Assembly (NCBI RefSeq): GCF_050920415.1 | Contig: NZ_CP169309.1 | Strand: one strand, 5' to 3' | Length of the DNA stretch: 64,000 nt | Source: Escherichia coli | GTDB lineage: Bacteria; Pseudomonadota; Gammaproteobacteria; Enterobacterales; Enterobacteriaceae | Part shown: one piece after another, positions 2,140 to 29,272 of the stretch | How the letters are laid out: the number at the start of each line of letters is the position of its first letter | Numbering within the stretch: the first letter of the stretch is position 1 | Position numbers and translations under genes: made by a program | The notes under the pieces: model-generated | Seen by the model: the letters and a program-made list of their open reading frames with translations, nothing else | Database searches by the model: none | What the model was told of the DNA's origin: nothing

Positions 2140-3567
2140 CTAGCGCGACTGCTGATTATATTCATCATCGCGTTGATAAGCTTCATCATTCGGCTGCTCC
2201 GGTACCGACCGCAGTCGATACTCTTCATCCTGGCTCACCGCTTGTTCAGCCAAATCCGGATTAATCTCGCGTTTAATTTCTACTCCTAAACCGCGAAACG
2301 CTTCTGCTTGCGCCAGCACATTTCCGCGACCTGAAGAGAGTTTTTTCATTGCCTGGCGATAGTTATCCTGCGCTTTGTCGAGACTTTGACCAATCGCGGA
2401 CATATCATCGACAAACAAGCGCATTTTGTCGTACAACTTGCTGGCACGATCGGCTATTTTCTGAGCGTTGCGGCTTTGATGCTCATAGCGCCAGAGGTTG
2501 GCGATAGTGCGCAGCGCCACCAGCAGCGTGGTCGGGCTAACCAGCATGATATTGTTTTTCAACGCTTCGGTGATCAGCTCCGGCTGGCGGTCAAGCGCCA
2601 GTAAAAATGCGGGCTCAACAGGGATAAACATCAGCACGTAATCCAGGGTTCGTAGCCCCGGCAGCTGTTGATAATCTTTACGTCCCAGCAAGCGGATGTG
2701 GTTACGCACCGACGCGATATGTTCCTGTAGCGAGCTTTCGCGGGTGTAGTCGTCTTCTGCGTTGAAATAGCGTTCATAGGCGACCAGCGTCATTTTGGCG
2801 TCGATCACCACATCTTTTCCGTGCGGCAACCGCACGATGACATCCGGCTGCATCCGCGAGCGGGCGTCATTTTCGATGCTGACCTGGGTTTCATATTCAT
2901 ACCCTTCACGCAGACCGGAAGCCTCCAGCACACGCGTCAATACTACCTCGCCCCAGTTGCCCTGGGTTTTATTGTCGCCTTTCAGCGCACGCGTCAGGTT
3001 GATCGCTTCCTGGGCCATTTGCGCGTTGAGCTGCTGGAGATTGCGTATTTCGTGAGTCAGGGTATGGCGTTCTTGTGCTTCTTTACCGAAACTGTCCTGA
3101 ACCTGACGACGAAAATCGTCCAGTTGTTCACGTAGTGGCGACAACAGGCTGTTCAGACTCTGACGGTTTTGCTCATCAACCCGGCGATTGCTGTGCTCGA
3201 AAATACGGTTGGCGAGGTTTTCAAACTGCTCACTGAGGCGCTGTTCGCTGTTGATCATTTGGCGAATTTTATCGTCAGCATGTTGCTGTACAGCCTCCAT
3301 TCGCGTGGTGACTTCACGCAGATCCGCCTCCAGCGAGGTGTTAATGCTTTGCAGACTGCGCACTTCATTATTGAGTAACTCGCACTCAGCACGCCAATGT
3401 TCGCTTTGGGTAATTTGTTGTTTTGCCGCACTTAACTCCGCGACCATCTCTTCACGTTCAGCGAATTGCTCGGCTTTTTGCTGCGCATGCTGATAACTGG
3501 CAATCAGCCAGCCAATCGCCACGCTCACCAACGCAATAACTGCGTAAACCATGATTGAGATATCCAC
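2140..3567 (-). CDS. rmuC: RmuC DNA recombination protein, 475 aa from GTG
   Basis: Track frame 2140..3660; GGAGG 4 nt before GTG at 3565-3567 (VDISIMVYAVIAL...), which matches the 475-aa length I recall for RmuC; ATG five codons downstream is the alternative start. Confidence 0.85.
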   Translation of the reverse strand: MDISIMVYAVIALVSVAIGWLIASYQHAQQKAEQFAEREEMVAELSAAKQQITQSEHWRAECELLNNEVRSLQSINTSLEADLREVTTRMEAVQQHADDKIRQMINSEQRLSEQFENLANRIFEHSNRRVDEQNRQSLNSLLSPLREQLDDFRRQVQDSFGKEAQERHTLTHEIRNLQQLNAQMAQEAINLTRALKGDNKTQGNWGEVVLTRVLEASGLREGYEYETQVSIENDARSRMQPDVIVRLPHGKDVVIDAKMTLVAYERYFNAEDDYTRESSLQEHIASVRNHIRLLGRKDYQQLPGLRTLDYVLMFIPVEPAFLLALDRQPELITEALKNNIMLVSPTTLLVALRTIANLWRYEHQSRNAQKIADRASKLYDKMRLFVDDMSAIGQSLDKAQDNYRQAMKKLSSGRGNVLAQAEAFRGLGVEIKREINPDLAEQAVSQDEEYRLRSVPEQPNDEAYQRDDEYNQQSR

Positions 3568-22914: not shown

Positions 22915-23784
22915 TTAGAACAAGTCGTTCAGCATAACCCCCACACCCACACGGGTCTGGTTAAAGTTATAGTCTATGAGCGATTCGCCATAACCGCTGT
23001 AAATCTGGGTATAAAGGCGCACATGCCTGGTGATCGGGTAACTTAAGCCTAACTCCGCACCACCGTAACCGGTGTTCCAGTTGTACTGTCCTTTCGCACT
23101 CAGCACCGCATCACCCAGGTGATAGCCGATTTTAAGCTGGTAGTAACCCATATATTTGGTGATATCTGGGTTATCGTCAGTATTCCCCACCACATACCAC
23201 GGCTTCACCTCTACCAGCCAGTTACCGTTTTCTGCCATCAGACGGGTATAAAGGCGGTTCCAGCTGCGGGAAGTCGGGTCTGAACGCCCGTTAGAGTCGT
23301 GGTTATAACCCATCTCCACATCGCGCAGCGTCCAGCCAGCAAAGCGGTAATCGGTGGCAAAGCCAAGGAACAATTGCGGTTCGTAGTTGGTTTCACGAAA
23401 CGGTGAAGACTCTTCGCTGTTGGACAGTTGCCACCAGGATTTTTGCGTGTAAGAAGCCCCCAACACCGAGTTTGGCCCCAATATTCCGCGCCACAGCGGA
23501 AATGCCAGGCTCAACTGGAATTTCACTTCATCCTTACGCGCATTTTCCGCCCAGTCGTAACTGGCAATCGCTTCTTTATTCAGATCGCTGGTTTGGGTGT
23601 AGATGAGGTAGTTGGTGTCATAAGGATAGAGCGTGAAAGGATTGTCATGCTCCTGCAGCATATTCGCGATAATACTGCCACGCACCGCAGGCGTGTCATG
23701 CACCTCTTTCACCGTTGCCTCTTGCGCATACACTGCCATTGGCAACATAAACACCGGCAACAACCAGCCCTGCAGAGTCCGCAT
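22915..23784 (-). CDS. pldA: Outer-membrane phospholipase A, 289 aa
   Basis: MRTLQGWLLPVFMLPMAVYAQEATVKEVHDTPAVRGSI... Confidence 0.95.
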   Translation of the reverse strand: MRTLQGWLLPVFMLPMAVYAQEATVKEVHDTPAVRGSIIANMLQEHDNPFTLYPYDTNYLIYTQTSDLNKEAIASYDWAENARKDEVKFQLSLAFPLWRGILGPNSVLGASYTQKSWWQLSNSEESSPFRETNYEPQLFLGFATDYRFAGWTLRDVEMGYNHDSNGRSDPTSRSWNRLYTRLMAENGNWLVEVKPWYVVGNTDDNPDITKYMGYYQLKIGYHLGDAVLSAKGQYNWNTGYGGAELGLSYPITRHVRLYTQIYSGYGESLIDYNFNQTRVGVGVMLNDLF

Positions 23785-23948
23785 CGGTCGTGTTCTCCGT
23801 AACGAATTATTGATTAGATGAATATTTTTCTGCGGGCTATTTTACATACTTAACTCCTTTGCCGTTAGTTATCCCTTCCTAAAGTAGAAACCAACAAAAA
23901 AGAAGCATAAAATCAACATTTCATTAACCAATGAAGTGTAAGGATGAT

Positions 23949-24416
23949 ATGTCTGCCGTACTGACCGCTGAACAAGCCCTGAAATTAGTGGGTGAGATGT
24001 TTGTTTATCACATGCCATTTAACCGTGCGTTAGGGATGGAACTGGAGCGTTACGAAAAAGAGTTCGCACAGCTGGCCTTTAAAAATCAGCCAATGATGGT
24101 GGGTAACTGGGCGCAAAGCATTTTGCACGGCGGGGTCATTGCGTCGGCGCTGGATGTCGCCGCAGGTCTGGTGTGCGTGGGAAGTACCTTAACCCGCCAC
24201 GAAACCATCAGTGAAGATGAACTACGCCAGCGGCTATCGCGGATGGGGACCATTGATCTTCGCGTCGATTATCTGCGCCCAGGCAGGGGTGAGCGTTTTA
24301 CTGCTACCAGTAGTCTGTTGCGTGCGGGCAATAAAGTCGCCGTCGCCCGCGTTGAATTACACAATGAAGAACAGCTTTATATAGCCAGTGCCACCGCCAC
24401 CTATATGGTAGGTTGA
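23949..24416 (+). CDS. yigI: YigI thioesterase-fold protein, 155 aa
   Basis: Track frame 23931..24416; start set at [18 protein letters not shown]... with AAGGA upstream. Confidence 0.85.
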
Positions 24417-24467
24417 TAACGTAAAAGCAGGTAAACTGCTGTTACCAATTAAAAATGAGTATTCCCG

Positions 24468-25358
24468 ATGGATGCAAAACAAACGCGGCAGGGCGTATTA
24501 CTCGCTCTTGCCGCTTATTTTATTTGGGGTATTGCGCCAGCGTACTTCAAGCTGATTTACTACGTGCCCGCCGATGAGATCCTGACGCATCGCGTGATCT
24601 GGTCGTTTTTCTTTATGGTGGTGCTGATGAGCATCTGCCGCCAGTGGTCTTATTTAAAAACGCTAATTCAGACGCCACAGAAAATTTTTATGCTGGCCGT
24701 CTCTGCCGTACTGATTGGCGGCAACTGGCTACTGTTTATCTGGGCGGTGAACAATCACCATATGCTGGAAGCGAGCCTCGGTTATTTTATTAACCCACTG
24801 GTGAACATTGTGCTGGGGATGATTTTCCTCGGCGAGCGATTCCGCCGGATGCAATGGCTGGCGGTGATTCTGGCGATATGTGGTGTATTGGTCCAGCTCT
24901 GGACTTTTGGTTCGCTGCCAATCATCGCGCTGGGGCTGGCGTTTAGTTTTGCCTTCTACGGCCTGGTACGCAAGAAAATTGCCGTTGAAGCGCAAACCGG
25001 CATGTTAATCGAAACCATGTGGCTGCTGCCCGTGGCGGCGATTTACCTGTTTGCTATTGCCGACAGCTCAACCAGCCATATGGGGCAAAACCCGATGTCG
25101 CTTAATTTACTGCTGATCGCCGCCGGTATTGTCACCACCGTTCCACTGTTGTGTTTTACTGCGGCTGCGACACGCCTGCGTCTCTCAACGTTAGGCTTTT
25201 TTCAGTACATTGGCCCGACGCTGATGTTCCTGCTGGCTGTGACGTTTTATGGTGAAAAACCGGGTGCCGATAAGATGGTGACCTTCGCCTTTATTTGGGT
25301 GGCGCTGGCAATTTTTGTGATGGATGCGATTTATACGCAGCGTAGAACGTCCAAATAA
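24468..25358 (+). CDS. rarD: RarD EamA-family transporter, 296 aa
   Basis: MDAKQTRQGVLLALAAYFIWGIAPAYFKLIYYVPADEILTHRV... Confidence 0.95.
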   Translation: MDAKQTRQGVLLALAAYFIWGIAPAYFKLIYYVPADEILTHRVIWSFFFMVVLMSICRQWSYLKTLIQTPQKIFMLAVSAVLIGGNWLLFIWAVNNHHMLEASLGYFINPLVNIVLGMIFLGERFRRMQWLAVILAICGVLVQLWTFGSLPIIALGLAFSFAFYGLVRKKIAVEAQTGMLIETMWLLPVAAIYLFAIADSSTSHMGQNPMSLNLLLIAAGIVTTVPLLCFTAAATRLRLSTLGFFQYIGPTLMFLLAVTFYGEKPGADKMVTFAFIWVALAIFVMDAIYTQRRTSK

Positions 25359-25668
25359 AAAATAAATATATTCTGAAAAAATATGCCGACTCTTGCATGA
25401 GAGTGGGCATATTGCCATGCTGACAGGAGACTCACATAAGGAAAGGCAGAATTTCCAGACGTCGTTGTATATTTTCATTTGCTTTAATAAATTTCATTTT
25501 TGGTAAATTCAGCATTATGTTATTAGCGATGAGCAAGACCAATCATTAACCAAGTTCTCTTCAGAATGTAATGAAAAATGTGAAGTGCATTTCTTTTTTA
25601 AAATTTTTTTACCCTATTATTTCTTATCAAATTAACATTGCCCTTAATTATAAGAAAGGAGAATATAA

Positions 25669-26517
25669 ATGAACAACATATTAGGCTCATCAATTAATAT
25701 GCCCTGTACACTTTTCGAAACTATTACTTTATTCGATGATTTTTCTGCTGATGATATGCAGTATGGGGATATGGAAGAACAAGATTTTCTCTCACTCGGC
25801 TTAAGCGACATCTCTGCAAAAGTTGATCCTTACCGCCTCATTAAATACCATTTTCCTGGGCCGAATTCTACTTATGGTGCTTTTAGTGTTCCAACTTCTG
25901 GAACAAAAATATCACAAAGTGAATGTATTGATATTTTATTTGCAGAAATGAAAGATCTGGCAAAAATGTTTTCCTTTTTTGGACAATACAAAACACTCAT
26001 CCAGGATCTGATTGATCATTTTAGATATGGAAATGGCAACAGTTTCCATAGCCAGGAATTGAACTTATCTTTTCATGAACGAATAAACAAATATGATTAT
26101 AATAGCCCAATACGTGTAATCAAAGAATGTATCGAAAATGATATTTCTTCAACACCTACGATAGGATACCGGCCTCTTCTCCTACAAAAGATTAAGACCG
26201 AATTACTTTCATCAAGACTAAATAAATTCAATGATTTTAAAGATAATTTTAATGGCCTGGGAATCAGCATTCATGATATCTCAGCTCAAAAAATATCTCT
26301 TTTAAATTTTCAAAAATATCCTATGGGCTGGAGCGCTACCATTCATTTCATAGCACAAGACCACTTTGGTTTGGATGTGACTGATATAAAAAACAAGATT
26401 TACAACAAGTATAGATTTTTTCGCATATGGTTCTTTTTACAACGGCATAAAGACTTTGCTTTCAAACCTTTTTTTACCAATTTTAACACTATCGAAAGAA
26501 TCGAAAATTATCTATGA
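25669..26517 (+). CDS. Hypothetical protein, 282 aa, AT-rich gene at the yigG/yigF position
   Basis: Long ORF in AT-rich DNA with a Shine-Dalgarno AAGGAG 7 nt upstream; no family I can assign. Confidence 0.6.
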   Translation: MNNILGSSINMPCTLFETITLFDDFSADDMQYGDMEEQDFLSLGLSDISAKVDPYRLIKYHFPGPNSTYGAFSVPTSGTKISQSECIDILFAEMKDLAKMFSFFGQYKTLIQDLIDHFRYGNGNSFHSQELNLSFHERINKYDYNSPIRVIKECIENDISSTPTIGYRPLLLQKIKTELLSSRLNKFNDFKDNFNGLGISIHDISAQKISLLNFQKYPMGWSATIHFIAQDHFGLDVTDIKNKIYNKYRFFRIWFFLQRHKDFAFKPFFTNFNTIERIENYL

Positions 26518-26942
26518 AAAGCAAACTCCAGAAAATTATATTATATTTATTTCTTATATGCTGCATCTATAATTTATGGACATTGCGTCCTGTACAGATT
26601 TTGTATACATACTCTGATGCTGGCAATTCAGTCTTTCTGGTCGTTGATCATCTGCCATGGACTGATAGCGATAAAATAAATTGGTATCTGAAGCATCAGG
26701 ATGAAATTAAAAGTCAAAATCCCCTACCAGAAGGTAGTTGGCATACCTGGTATGTTATTGATATCGGTAATGGCTTCACTGACTATAAAAAATATATCGA
26801 AGGGCTGTATGAAGATCTCTACTGTTTCCCGACGATTAAGAGCAATGATAATTGCATCGTAAAAAACTATTTAATGGTTATTAATGAATATCCTTACCGT
26901 AATACTCATTTTTTATTGCTGATAACAATGAGTATCAACTAA
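26514..26942 (+). CDS. Hypothetical small protein with N-terminal hydrophobic segment, 142 aa, translationally coupled to upstream gene
   Basis: ATGA start/stop overlap with 25669..26517; MKSKLQKIILYLFLICCIYNLW signal/anchor-like N-terminus. Confidence 0.6.
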   Translation: MKSKLQKIILYLFLICCIYNLWTLRPVQILYTYSDAGNSVFLVVDHLPWTDSDKINWYLKHQDEIKSQNPLPEGSWHTWYVIDIGNGFTDYKKYIEGLYEDLYCFPTIKSNDNCIVKNYLMVINEYPYRNTHFLLLITMSIN

Positions 26943-27045
26943 CCCAGGAAAATAAGATAGAGCGAGTGTTCAACCCGCATGACTTTGAAAAAGACAATTT
27001 TCAGCAATAAGCCGGATAAAGAACAATCTTTACCCGGCATTTATA

Positions 27046-27996
27046 TTACAACCAGTTCTTCCGCTTAAAGTAAAGATACGGTGCCAGGCCCGCGAGGATC
27101 ATAAAGATAATCGCGCCTGGGTAGCCGAAGCTCCACTTCAGTTCCGGCATAAACTCAAAGTTCATCCCGTAGCTGGAAGCGACCAGCGTCGGTGGCAGGA
27201 ACACCACGGATACCACCGAGAAGATTTTAATGATGCGGTTCTGCTCGATATTGATAAAGCCCATCGCCGCCTGCATCAGGAAGTTCACCTTCTGGAACAG
27301 GGATTCGTTATGCGGCAGCAGGGATTCGATATCTCGCAGGATTTCACGCGCCTGCTCCAGTTGCCCACCCGGTAAGCGTGCTTTACGTACCAGGAAGTTG
27401 AGCGCGCGCTGGGTATCCATCAGACACAGGCGAACTTTCCAGCCGATATCTTCCAGTTCCGCCAGCGTGGAGAGCGCCTCGTCGTACTCATCGCCCTGAT
27501 GCCCTTCCATAATCACCCGGCTCAACTGCTCCAGGTCGCTGTAGATATTTTCAATTTCATCTGCCAGCTGTTCGATTTTGGTTTCGAACAGATCCAACAG
27601 CAGCTCGTAGGCGTTACCGTCCACCATTGACTGGCTACGGGCGCGCATACGATACAGACGGAATGCAGGCAGTTCACGCTCACGCAGAGTAAACAGACGA
27701 CCATCACGGATGGTAAATGCCACAGTGGAGTTACCGGCGTGATCTTCCGCATCTTCAAAGAAGAAGAAGGAGTGAATATGCAGGCCGTCATCGTCTTCAA
27801 AGAAACGCGCTGATGCTTCGATGTCTTCCAGTTCCGGGCGTGTTGCCAGGCTCTGGCCAAGTTCAGATTGTACGCGCAGTCGCTCGTCGTCGTCCGGTTC
27901 GACAAGATCAATCCATACTGCATTTACAAGGGGTTGTGACTCTTCGACTTCCAGCCGGGTCAGTCGGTTATTTTCCAGTTGAAATGCGCTCAGCAT
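27046..27996 (-). CDS. corA: CorA Mg2+/Co2+ transporter, 316 aa
   Basis: Track frame to 28011; start set at [17 protein letters not shown]...; C-terminal [11 protein letters not shown] motif. Confidence 0.95.
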
Positions 27997-28365
27997 GACC
28001 GGGACTCCCAATGCTTAAAATATCGGACAGTTCGGTGGGCACACAGAAACAAATTGGGTTTCAGACCATTAAACAGCCTGACTCAGCGCGACGGGAAAAA
28101 TTGAGGTCGCTGACAACCGCTAAGGCTATCAGCAAAAAGGGATAGCCTTAGGAGTTGATCCTGGATGACAGGATAATGAGCCAGTATCTACTGGGTGTGT
28201 CCAAGGCGAATGTCCTCTTAGAGTGATCGTGCGCGCATGTTACGCCAGCAAAATTTTGCCGTCAACACGCAACAGAACACCACAGAACAATAGTTGAACT
28301 TCGCGCTTTTTGGTACTCGTCAAGGTCGCTAACAGGATAAAAAAATCCCACATCCAGGACCTATA

Positions 28366-29130
28366 ATGGCGCATCGGCTACTCATTGGTAAAGGAATGAT
28401 CACCTTGAATCTCAAACGGATTTTTCTCGCCCTCACCTTACTTCCCTTGTTTGCTGTTGCCGCTGATGATTGCGCACTATCAGATCCGACACTGACCATA
28501 CAGGCGTATACCGTTAATCCTCAAACAGAGCGGGTGAAAATGTACTGGCAAAAAGCCAATGGCGAAGCGTGGGAAACGTTACATGCGCTGCTGACGGATA
28601 TTAATAGTCAGGGTCAGGTGCAAATGGCGATGAACGGCAGCATCTATGATGAAAGCTATGCGCCGCTCGGTTTGTACATCGAAAACGGTCAGCAGAAGGT
28701 GGCGTTAAATCTCGCTTCAGGTGAAGGGAATTTCTTTATCCGTCCTGGCGGTGTGTTTTATGTCGCGGGAGATAAAGTCGGCATCGTTCGTCTGGATGCC
28801 TTTAAAACCAGTAAAGAGATTCAGTTCGCGGTGCAGTCAGGGCCAATGTTGATGGAAAACGGCGTCATTAATCCGCGTATTCATCCCAACGTCGCCTCAC
28901 GCAAAATTCGTAACGGTGTTGGGATTAATAAACAAGGGAACGCCGTGTTTTTGTTGAGCCAGCAGGTGACAAATTTTTATGATTTTGCCTGTTATGCCAA
29001 AACGAAACTGAACGTTGAGCAACTGCTTTATCTTGATGGCACGATTTCACATATGTATGTGAAAGGCGGGGCAATCCCGTGGCAACGCTATCCTTTTGTT
29101 ACCATGATTTCCGTCGAGCAGAAAAGTTAA
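28366..29130 (+). CDS. yigE: YigE, secreted protein of unknown function, 254 aa
   Basis: MAHRLLIGKGMITLNLKRIFLALTLLPLFAVAADD..., signal peptide. Confidence 0.85.
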   Translation: MAHRLLIGKGMITLNLKRIFLALTLLPLFAVAADDCALSDPTLTIQAYTVNPQTERVKMYWQKANGEAWETLHALLTDINSQGQVQMAMNGSIYDESYAPLGLYIENGQQKVALNLASGEGNFFIRPGGVFYVAGDKVGIVRLDAFKTSKEIQFAVQSGPMLMENGVINPRIHPNVASRKIRNGVGINKQGNAVFLLSQQVTNFYDFACYAKTKLNVEQLLYLDGTISHMYVKGGAIPWQRYPFVTMISVEQKS

Positions 29131-29165
29131 AACAACCGTTTTGTGTCACTGAATATGGTGCAGAT

Positions 29166-29270
29166 GCCGGATGCGGCGCAAACGCCTTACCCGGCCTACA
29201 TGACATTGCAATTTATTGAATCTACATGATTTTGTAGGCCGGATAAGGTGCGCAGCACCGCATCCGGCAA
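29166..29270. repeat. REP pair (BIME) between yigE and uvrD
   Basis: gccggatgcggcgcaaacgccttacccggcctac ... gtaggccggataaggtgcgcagcaccgcatccggca. Confidence 0.8.
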
Positions 29271-29272
29271 CG

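Follow-up and report, generated by a model that had tools for sequence, protein, structure and literature searches.

A probable orphan DUF3289/DUF943 effector-immunity module with a frameshifted immunity gene between rarD and corA in Escherichia coli

In a 64-kb stretch of an Escherichia coli genome (the window), an AT-rich cassette of two genes separates rarD from corA. It is, we think very likely, an orphan antibacterial effector-immunity module of the DUF3289/DUF943 family, carrying a toxin of the cell wall whose delivery is probably by a T6SS, and represents an already known kind of system. The module is not entire: a frameshift costs the DUF943 immunity gene its last ~32 codons, whereas the toxin gene stays intact. 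From the present analysis, the identification draws on family membership, structural homology to the crystallised complex 9JDI, the invariable pairing of the two genes, fusions of DUF3289 to PAAR and Hcp, and the T6SS genes of the related genome MFDS1022581; that such toxins act in the periplasm, are neutralised by DUF943 and depend on a T6SS for delivery is taken from the literature about homologues. The features of the locus and of its two products are as follows.

24468..25358, plus strand: rarD, the left flank of the cassette
25359..25442, plus strand: rarD-proximal intergenic segment, outside the cassette proper and common to K-12-type genomes
25380-25413, within the preceding segment: imperfect inverted repeat AATATGCC...GGCATATT, from direct reading of the sequence
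25443..25668, plus strand: cassette-specific AT-rich leader (GC ~0.27-0.35), from composition and sequence
25656-25661, plus strand: strong Shine-Dalgarno sequence AAGGAG at the leader's end, 7 nt ahead of the effector ATG
25669..26517, plus strand: intact effector gene for a 282-aa YPO3983/DUF3289 protein
Effector protein: family-conserved motif D231-H-F-G-L-D236-x-x-D239, plus W254, Q258 and P267-F268
26514..27010, plus strand: frameshifted DUF943 immunity gene, as read a 142-aa ORF at 26514-26942
26909-26914, plus strand: T6 homopolymer, the site of a 1-bp deletion (T7 in intact alleles, from alignments)
DUF943 protein: N-terminal TM anchor at residues ~2-26, then a predicted periplasmic domain with C104 and C114
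27011..27038, between the convergent DUF943 and corA genes: GC-rich, terminator-like hairpin (terminator scan: 12-pair stem with 6 G-C pairs)
27046 onwards, minus strand: corA, the right flank of the cassette, convergent with the DUF943 gene

As the initial annotation had described, the cassette occupies the gap in which K-12 has yigG and yigF, a placement with which both the flanks and a comparison with K-12/MC4100 agree, and it holds two plus-strand ORFs of 282 and 142 aa (25669..26517 and 26514..26942) that share an ATGA. Its AT-richness, also pointed out there, is evident from a GC content of 0.27-0.37 over 25300-27100 against 0.46-0.57 in rarD, corA and beyond. K-12-type genomes align to 25359-27045 only at query bases 1-84, at 96-99%. 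From ~25502 on, the leader is homologous to that of a second haplotype described below ('both'), in which it is located after a corA' fragment. The inverted repeat at 25380-25413 was not called by the terminator scan, and a promoter scan detected no sigma-70 consensus promoter on the plus strand upstream of the effector gene, the 8 promoter-like sites found comparing with 8.6 expected by chance. At the other end, the hairpin was reported on the minus strand; on the plus strand it starts directly after the ancestral DUF943 stop codon, and, as a putative terminator, it is probably bidirectional. A search of 25200-27200 for known RNA elements returned two sub-threshold eukaryotic snoRNA models alone, which are chance matches.

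The 282-aa protein had been read as lacking any recognisable domain. However, its residues 8-280 match the whole of the TIGR03034 'YPO3983 family' model (positions 1-274 of 274) at 395.9 bits, against a cut-off of 156.45, and the protein also matches Pfam DUF3289 (PF11692) with an E-value of 7.9e-83; judged by these profiles, it is a full-length member of the YPO3983/DUF3289 family. Residues D231, H232, F233, G234, D239, W254, L257, Q258, P267 and F268 are invariant across 49 sequences and are all found in the window protein. The DHFGLDxxD motif is also present in 9JDI, the solved DUF3289-type structure whose fold the 282-aa protein matches. We found no signal peptide, TM or hydrophobic segment in this ~33 kDa protein, and no recognised loading domain (PAAR, MIX, PIX or Rhs). 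PAAR-fused relatives are ~35-37% identical to it, and the N-terminal 80 residues are conserved in these fused versions too, the matches starting at query residue 8-10. Estimates of dN/dS for the cassette genes are 0.12-0.22. The cassette proteins diverge far faster than their surroundings, with 63% identity to their Salmonella counterparts versus 90-97% for the flanks.

The second gene encodes a DUF943 protein, and here the initial reading holds only in part: the 142-aa ORF is present as described, but the sequence comparisons indicate that it is the frameshift product of a gene whose native protein has 165 aa, the window carrying T6 where intact alleles carry T7. The ancestral frame picks up again past the T-run, so that its tail remains legible in the +2 frame up to the TAA at 27008-27010. 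As read, the product matches PF06092 with an E-value of 1.4e-23 over model positions 2-133 of 151; an intact allele does so with 2.2e-27 over positions 2-150. The frameshift takes away the C-terminal strands 139-143 and 149-152, both modelled with confidence, as well as the motif Y-QLTPENKIERV, which is kept in close relatives. The N-terminal hydrophobic segment that had been noted is borne out (residues 8-26, Kyte-Doolittle 19-residue mean 1.63; AF2 helix at 2-24). We infer that the body of the protein, with C104 and C114, an invariant Cys pair in the DUF943 proteins compared, faces the periplasm. A lipoprotein reading of the N-terminus (LIC followed by C) was rejected, since this Cys is not conserved among orthologues.

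The exact window allele is found in only 3 of the 751 genomes that carry the same allele group. Over 7,688 nt, MFDS1022581 departs from the window at 1 SNP and at the T indel; it has T7 and an intact DUF943 gene. The deletion, private with respect to this one-SNP relative, is therefore either of very recent origin or an error in sequencing the homopolymer. The T6 allele is also recorded elsewhere: RefSeq marks the same lesion as 'frameshifted' or a pseudogene in three other genomes, and T6 is seen on at least 3 different cassette haplotypes, including that of strain M1/5, in which an 11-bp deletion in the effector gene leaves both genes broken. That the T tract is a genuine, recurrent slippage site, producing cells with toxin and T6SS both intact and without full-length immunity, strikes us as distinctly improbable. 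The 142-aa product may still protect, given that the DUF943 proteins of 130 aa encoded beside PAAR-DUF3289 fusions end naturally at about the window's truncation point and that the remaining HMM match is still at E 1e-23.

The cassette is present, at this one fixed site, in about half of complete E. coli genomes and missing from the rest. Carriers include B2 pathogens, Nissle 1917 and O157:H7, in whose Sakai strain the two genes (ECs_4747 and ECs_5766) are annotated as 'hypothetical'; K-12 is without the cassette. In K-12/MC4100, the same rarD-corA gap holds yigG and yigF, which had been suggested to be a decayed version of the cassette. They share with it this position and the character of small genes without known function. 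YigG and YigF differ, however, in being multi-TM membrane proteins that belong to other Pfam and NCBIfam families (YigF to DUF2628), and their sizes, 126 aa each, are indeed unlike those of the window ORFs, as had been remarked. Compared with K-12 YigG and YigF by BLASTP, neither window protein gave a match (E>1). Moreover, the junction yigF-corA'-DUF3289 occurs in 1,697 of 5,426 complete E. coli genomes (for example L001), so the two gene pairs are separate insertions in one gap and not alleles, and the suggestion of decay in K-12 falls. In this 'both' haplotype, the cassette is bordered by ~145-bp direct repeats of corA, which would permit its deletion. As a further observation on the locus, the flanks of APEC O2-211, M1/5 and BCE049 are only 95-98% identical to the window, and these genomes have an extra gene between yigE and uvrD.

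In every neighbourhood examined, DUF3289 is followed immediately by DUF943. These neighbourhoods comprise E. coli, Salmonella (at the same rarD-corA site), a tandem double pair in Enterobacter and three more distant contexts, which include PAAR-DUF3289 fusions and extra DUF943 copies; the linkage of the two families has also been reported in Klebsiella (n=780; PMC12469244). Structural homology links the two window proteins to the two chains of 9JDI, a T6SS effector-immunity complex. Among 32 long DUF3289 proteins, nine carry PAAR, two Hcp/TssD and one DUF4280, and others carry cell-wall domains: M23 (three proteins), PG_binding_1 (two), LysM, SH3 and M14. PIX-DUF3289 fusions have also been described (bioRxiv 10.1101/2023.07.16.549128). 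As for a T6SS in the same genome, the near-identical MFDS1022581, a relative standing in for the window's own genome, encodes a complete one, its full core set comprising tssA, B, C, E, F, G, H, J, K, L and M, alongside tagH, two Hcp, three VgrG and two PAAR genes. Likewise, in O157:H7 Sakai the cassette coexists with a T6SS island. The 64-kb window is free of T6SS, VgrG, Hcp and adaptor genes, and no T6SS gene lies beside the stand-alone DUF3289 copies examined; delivery by a T6SS of E. coli is for this reason something we infer, as we do how the toxin is loaded, lipid II as its target and what the frameshift means for immunity. Taken with the fusions and homologues, the analysis suggests that the 282-aa toxin is probably delivered by a T6SS. 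No study of the E. coli pair itself turned up in a literature search.

Among the closest described counterparts is T6EC1/T6IC1 of Yersinia pseudotuberculosis IP32881, with the same Pfam families in the same order (Geller et al. 2024, PMC11148199). There, the PAAR-DUF3289 effector is toxic in the periplasm of E. coli, where it causes cell rounding, and is counteracted by its DUF943 immunity protein, T6IC1, which like the window DUF943 has a single N-terminal TM helix and a periplasmic body (PMC11148199). The window effector differs from T6EC1 in being stand-alone, with DUF3289 over the whole of its 282 aa, and orphan. As an orphan it resembles the DUF3289 effector of Aeromonas jandaei DSM 7311, likewise encoded away from T6SS genes and with its immunity gene directly downstream, for which tssB-dependent secretion and killing, the latter blocked by the downstream gene, have been demonstrated (Fridman et al. 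2025, PMC12135965). The A. jandaei immunity protein is nonetheless different, having 95 aa, a signal peptide and three TM helices, and is not a DUF943 protein (PMC12135965). A further counterpart is BtpeA-BtpiA of Bacteroides fragilis (Bacteroidota; PDB 9JDI, 9JG8/9JG9), with only ~22% identity between BtpeA and the window effector and only 11% between BtpiA and DUF943. BtpeA has 608 aa, with a PAAR tip encoded N-terminally within the effector, and requires the adaptor BtapC (PMC13402684).

After 9JDI, the next best fold neighbours are PaeM, ColM and pectocin M1. Like the role proposed for DUF3289, the colicin M family (ColM, PaeM, syringacin M, pectocin M; PF14859) acts periplasmically on the cell-wall pathway, and its immunity protein Cmi has an inner-membrane anchor and faces the periplasm, as predicted for DUF943, yet DUF943 does not resemble Cmi. 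Membership of the colicin M family by sequence was rejected: the 282-aa protein has no PF14859 match, hhalign gave a probability of 0.2% whether the target was ColM by itself or a ColM-family alignment, and the motif DxYDx5HR, present in eight of 11 ColM-family sequences, was found in none of 49 DUF3289 sequences even as a relaxed pattern. The window effector also differs from colicin M in lacking TonB-box and FhuA-binding import domains, and would enter by injection instead of receptor-mediated uptake. With the ColM motif missing and family members fused to peptidoglycan-binding and M23 domains, the chemistry of DUF3289 may not be colicin-M-like at all.

On this basis, it seems reasonable to propose that the DUF3289 protein, which has no export signal, would be made in the cytoplasm, loaded on a T6SS and injected into Gram-negative neighbours. 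Once in the target periplasm, it would harm cell-wall synthesis or integrity, leading to rounding and lysis; in print, it has been proposed that the lipid II precursor is cleaved in the manner of colicin M. Its putative catalytic centre is most likely the acidic/His cluster D231-H232...D236...D239. DUF943, encoded downstream and translationally coupled, would be anchored in the inner membrane by its one N-terminal helix, and its disulfide-containing domain in the periplasm may bind and block toxin arriving from sister cells. Were the system active, a T6SS-positive lineage should pay a price for an intact toxin beside a truncated immunity protein, which counts against this model, as do the orphan position of the cassette, the lack of a recognised loading domain and the failure to detect a consensus promoter upstream.

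It is possible, though we think it rather unlikely, that the module is decaying here, that is, that the frameshifted immunity gene has left the pair unable to work as a weapon and the AT-rich cassette is perhaps silent and heading for loss. The lost strands and motif fit such decay, as do the treatment of the same lesion as a pseudogene in RefSeq, the two broken genes of M1/5 (T6 and the 11-bp effector deletion), the lack of the cassette in about half of E. coli genomes and the deletion that the corA repeats of the 'both' haplotype would allow. However, the effector ORF is intact and equal in length to functional-looking alleles, the lesion is either very recent or a sequencing error, and the natural 130-aa homologues and the remaining HMM match suggest that a truncated protein may still protect. 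This reading bears on the condition of the cassette today and leaves its identity untouched. We consider it improbable that the same toxin-antidote pair works without a T6SS, either as a colicin-like bacteriocin released by lysis or as an addiction module that stabilises the locus. The stand-alone cassettes are orphan everywhere examined, the closest folds outside the family are the released bacteriocins PaeM, ColM and pectocin M1, and the size is near that of ColM (282 versus 271 aa). Yet there is neither a lysis gene nor an SOS-type context; the N-terminal 80 residues, the would-be receptor or translocation module, are hard to reconcile with an import role when they are conserved in PAAR-fused versions; the family is fused to PAAR, Hcp and DUF4280; the orphan Aeromonas member depends on a T6SS (PMC12135965); and, unlike a cytoplasmic addiction toxin, the toxin is active only when sent to the periplasm (PMC11148199).

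The initial annotation had likened the pair to effector/immunity or small defence gene pairs, and only the former likeness is sustained, through the DUF3289/DUF943 families, already described in print as a T6SS effector-immunity pair (PMC11148199, PMC12135965), and the homology to 9JDI. A two-gene anti-phage defence or abortive-infection system is highly improbable: generic features alone speak for it (an AT-rich accessory cassette, variable presence, a soluble protein with a small membrane protein), and against these stand the absence of any match at E<=0.1 for either protein among 5,027 PADLOC models, the homology of both proteins to a solved T6SS complex and the position of the cassette between core genes and not in a defence island. 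That the two ORFs are orthologues of K-12 yigG and yigF, whether ordinary and full-length or diverged, is almost certainly wrong and has in effect already been refuted; the shared rarD-corA position favours it, but sequence similarity is lacking, the families differ and the two pairs coexist in tandem.

With the orphan effector-immunity module as the preferred reading, the idea of K-12 yigG and yigF as remnants of the cassette can go, and the annotation of ECs_4747 and ECs_5766 of O157:H7 Sakai can be updated to a putative T6SS toxin of the cell wall with its immunity protein. The known workings of such systems are unchanged by these findings. A genuine T6 allele that inactivates the gene would amount to a natural on/off switch for self-protection, and so to a form of kin-culling or of enforced cooperation; a genuine but harmless one would mean that DUF943 can do without its clade-specific C-terminal strands. 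The locus is also a neat case of a presence/absence polymorphism kept by flanking repeats and allele exchange. Finally, as an orphan module at one fixed site in about half of genomes and absent from K-12, the cassette is a candidate for one of the factors that decide how strains compete with each other in the gut.

The AT-rich two-gene cassette reported between rarD and corA in the initial annotation is real and correctly delimited, as judged from its open reading frames and from a dip in GC content (0.27-0.37 over 25300-27100 vs ~0.46-0.57 on both sides). A chance ORF is excluded, because the first gene maintains 282 codons in DNA of 33% GC and has hundreds of homologues. The two genes share an ATGA overlap.

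Features of the rarD-corA interval (window coordinates)
24468..25358, + strand: rarD, upstream flank
25380-25413: imperfect inverted repeat AATATGCC-GACTCT...AGAGTG-GGCATATT, just 3' of the rarD stop codon
25656-25661: strong Shine-Dalgarno sequence AAGGAG, 5' of the DUF3289 gene
25669..26517, + strand: first ORF, 282 aa, DUF3289
26514..26942, + strand: second ORF, 142 aa, DUF943
27011-27038: GC-rich hairpin between the DUF943 gene and corA
27046.., - strand: corA, convergent flank

The inverted repeat, which is also kept in K-12-type genomes, is possibly the rarD terminator; it was not flagged in a terminator scan and is not followed by a T-run. A search of the cassette region for known RNA families returned no match. 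The 282-aa protein had been thought to lack a recognisable domain, which proved wrong: it aligns with NCBIfam TIGR03034 ('YPO3983 family protein') over the whole model at 395.9 bits (cut-off 156.45 bits) and hits Pfam DUF3289 with an E-value of 7.9e-83. It has neither a signal peptide nor a TM segment. The 142-aa product matches Pfam DUF943 (E 1.4e-23; 2.2e-27 for the intact allele), and topology analysis bore out its hydrophobic N-terminal segment as an anchor, alongside a pair of cysteines such as periplasmic proteins typically have. RefSeq already names the pair DUF3289/DUF943 in thousands of E. coli genomes.

The cassette is an ordinary member of a published T6SS effector-immunity family. 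In every context examined, a DUF943 gene lies directly after the DUF3289 gene: Salmonella subspecies carry the pair at the same rarD-corA site, Enterobacter has two pairs in tandem at a different locus (L006 6499-9319), and three more distant contexts keep the same order, among them GCA_041200025.1 (L012 5632-10682), which encodes two PAAR-DUF3289 proteins, each with a DUF943 partner. The last array also holds an extra DUF943 gene and a DUF3289 fragment paired with a DUF943 of its own, and elsewhere a single effector is accompanied by two DUF943 genes (L011 341-2238); orphan immunity genes typically accumulate in such module arrays. Furthermore, 32 long DUF3289 members include fusions to PAAR (9/32), Hcp/TssD (2/32) and DUF4280 (1/32), and others carry M23 peptidase, PG_binding_1, LysM, SH3 or M14 domains; these architectures point to a probable T6SS delivery route and a cell-wall target.

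The T6SS effector-immunity role of the family has been published since 2024, and a structure was released in 2025. When directed to the periplasm, a Yersinia PAAR-DUF3289 protein makes E. coli cells round up and kills them, and its DUF943 partner neutralises it (Geller et al. 2024; PMC11148199). An orphan DUF3289 protein of Aeromonas jandaei depends on tssB for its secretion and killing and is blocked by the gene downstream of it (Fridman et al. 2025; PMC12135965). The same DUF3289/DUF943 linkage emerged from a Klebsiella survey (PMC12469244), and the PIX delivery domain also precedes DUF3289 (bioRxiv 10.1101/2023.07.16.549128). The pair had been likened to either an effector/immunity or a defence module; the pairing, the fusions and the literature favour the former, whereas no defence model matched the cassette region.

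DUF3289 proteins share an invariant cluster (D231-H232-F-G-L-D236-x-x-D239, W254, Q258, P267-F268) in place of the colicin M (ColM) motif, and because this cluster is their own, the 282-aa protein is best classed as a DUF3289 effector and not as a colicin M family member. The ColM motif follows a beta-hairpin, much as the DUF3289 cluster appears to do in our secondary-structure reading. The same cluster is present in the B. fragilis T6SS effector BtpeA, whose structure was reportedly solved by Li et al. in 2025. Cleavage of lipid II by DUF3289 is plausible but unproven.

The second ORF is present as first read, but its 142 aa are not the native length: it is a truncated form of a 165-aa protein. 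Alignment places a T6 run at 26909-26914 where E2348/69 and others have T7, a single-base deletion, and the ancestral tail IADNNEYQLTQENKIERVFNPHDFEKDNFQQ, with its stop, is readable in the shifted frame to 27010. The complete genome MFDS1022581, a near-twin whose only differences over 7,688 nt are a SNP at 24914 and the T missing from the window, encodes the intact protein, so that the lesion is either very recent or a homopolymer sequencing error. An identical T6 allele occurs in only 3 of the 751 complete genomes of the same allele group (APEC O2-211, M1/5 and BCE049), where RefSeq labels the gene 'frameshifted'; because the cassette haplotypes of these genomes differ (45 mismatches separate APEC O2-211 from the window), the slip is recurrent. 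The frameshift may inactivate the window DUF943 protein, since it removes a motif conserved among close relatives and two C-terminal strands (139-143 and 149-152) that are predicted confidently in the model. However, the whole conserved core is retained, including invariant cysteines C104 and C114, and the 130-aa DUF943 proteins behind PAAR-DUF3289 fusions have their natural C-terminus close to this position. In M1/5 (L016 2806-4136) both genes are pseudogenes, the DUF3289 gene through an 11-bp deletion (window equivalent 26367-26377) and DUF943 through the T6 frameshift, an instance of decay across the entire module.

The suggestion that K-12 yigG/yigF represent a decayed version of the cassette found no support: YigG and YigF resemble neither of the window proteins (E>1), and both pairs occur together in ~1,700 genomes. 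Of this interval, K-12-type genomes (MC4100) share with the window no more than the 84 bases that follow rarD. Gene content in the rarD-corA gap is hypervariable (window 25359-27045; L001 2501-5120; L015 5087-7728), with three haplotypes: the K-12 type, rarD-yigG-yigF-corA with yigG-yigF only (~2,700 genomes); the window type, with DUF3289-DUF943 only (~750-930 genomes, including E2348/69, Nissle 1917, ATCC 11775 and APEC strains); and one in which small membrane-protein genes are followed by corA' and the cassette (~1,700 genomes). The last is marked by a junction of yigF, a 147-nt 3' fragment of corA and DUF3289, contained by 1,697 of 5,426 genomes (coverage ≥80%; L001, for example), and the two pairs are therefore not alternatives. 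Here ~145-bp direct repeats derived from the corA 3' end, ~95% identical (3410-3556 and 5121-5267 in L001; window equivalent 27046-27190), lie on both sides of the cassette, and their recombination would remove it, leaving the K-12 arrangement. O157:H7 Sakai lacks K-12-like yigG/yigF on the rarD side and has instead a divergent YigG-like 128-aa ORF and a 104-aa membrane ORF (ECs_4748). A second presence/absence polymorphism lies 2 kb from the cassette: yigE and uvrD adjoin directly in the window (29131-29272), as in K-12, and are separated in E2348/69, APEC O2-211, M1/5, BCE049, L001 and Sakai by a ~900-nt gene of the SAM hydrolase/SAM-dependent halogenase family (named 'acetolactate synthase' in Sakai).

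Within E. coli, flanking proteins are 99-100% identical, DUF3289 84% and DUF943 94%; against Salmonella, the flanks are 90-97% and both cassette proteins 63% identical. With a dN/dS of 0.12-0.22, the cassette genes evolve fast yet remain functional, as conflict genes are expected to. The cassette is 99.0-99.5% identical to that of B2 strains (E2348/69, M1/5, BCE049), above its flanks (pldA-rarD 95%, corA-yigE 98%), so recombination seems to have carried the allele from one lineage to another. The region 22915-29130 is a mosaic, and pldA dS is ~0.30 against another E. coli. The window lineage is rare: among 5,426 complete genomes only MFDS1022581 closely matches its flank, the next best pldA-rarD match being 98.5%. 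The cassette is essentially chromosomal, with one plasmid place among 5,350.

MFDS1022581 carries a T6SS at the yafV/aspV island (L019 39568-49001 and L020 1-35001, 4.109-4.152 Mb), with tssA, B, C, E, F, G, H, J, K, L, M, tagH and vasI, two Hcp, three full VgrG, two PAAR and the effectors Tae4, M23 and Tle1. The core machinery is intact as annotated; an IS21 splits one VgrG gene, an IS2 and remnants of ISAs1 are present, and a group II intron (ltrA) adjoins the Tle1/DUF3304/DUF4123 module. O157:H7 Sakai likewise combines the cassette (ECs_4747, 85% identity; ECs_5766) with a T6SS island. The 33-kDa effector has no known loading domain; it would be a putative cargo of the cell's own T6SS.
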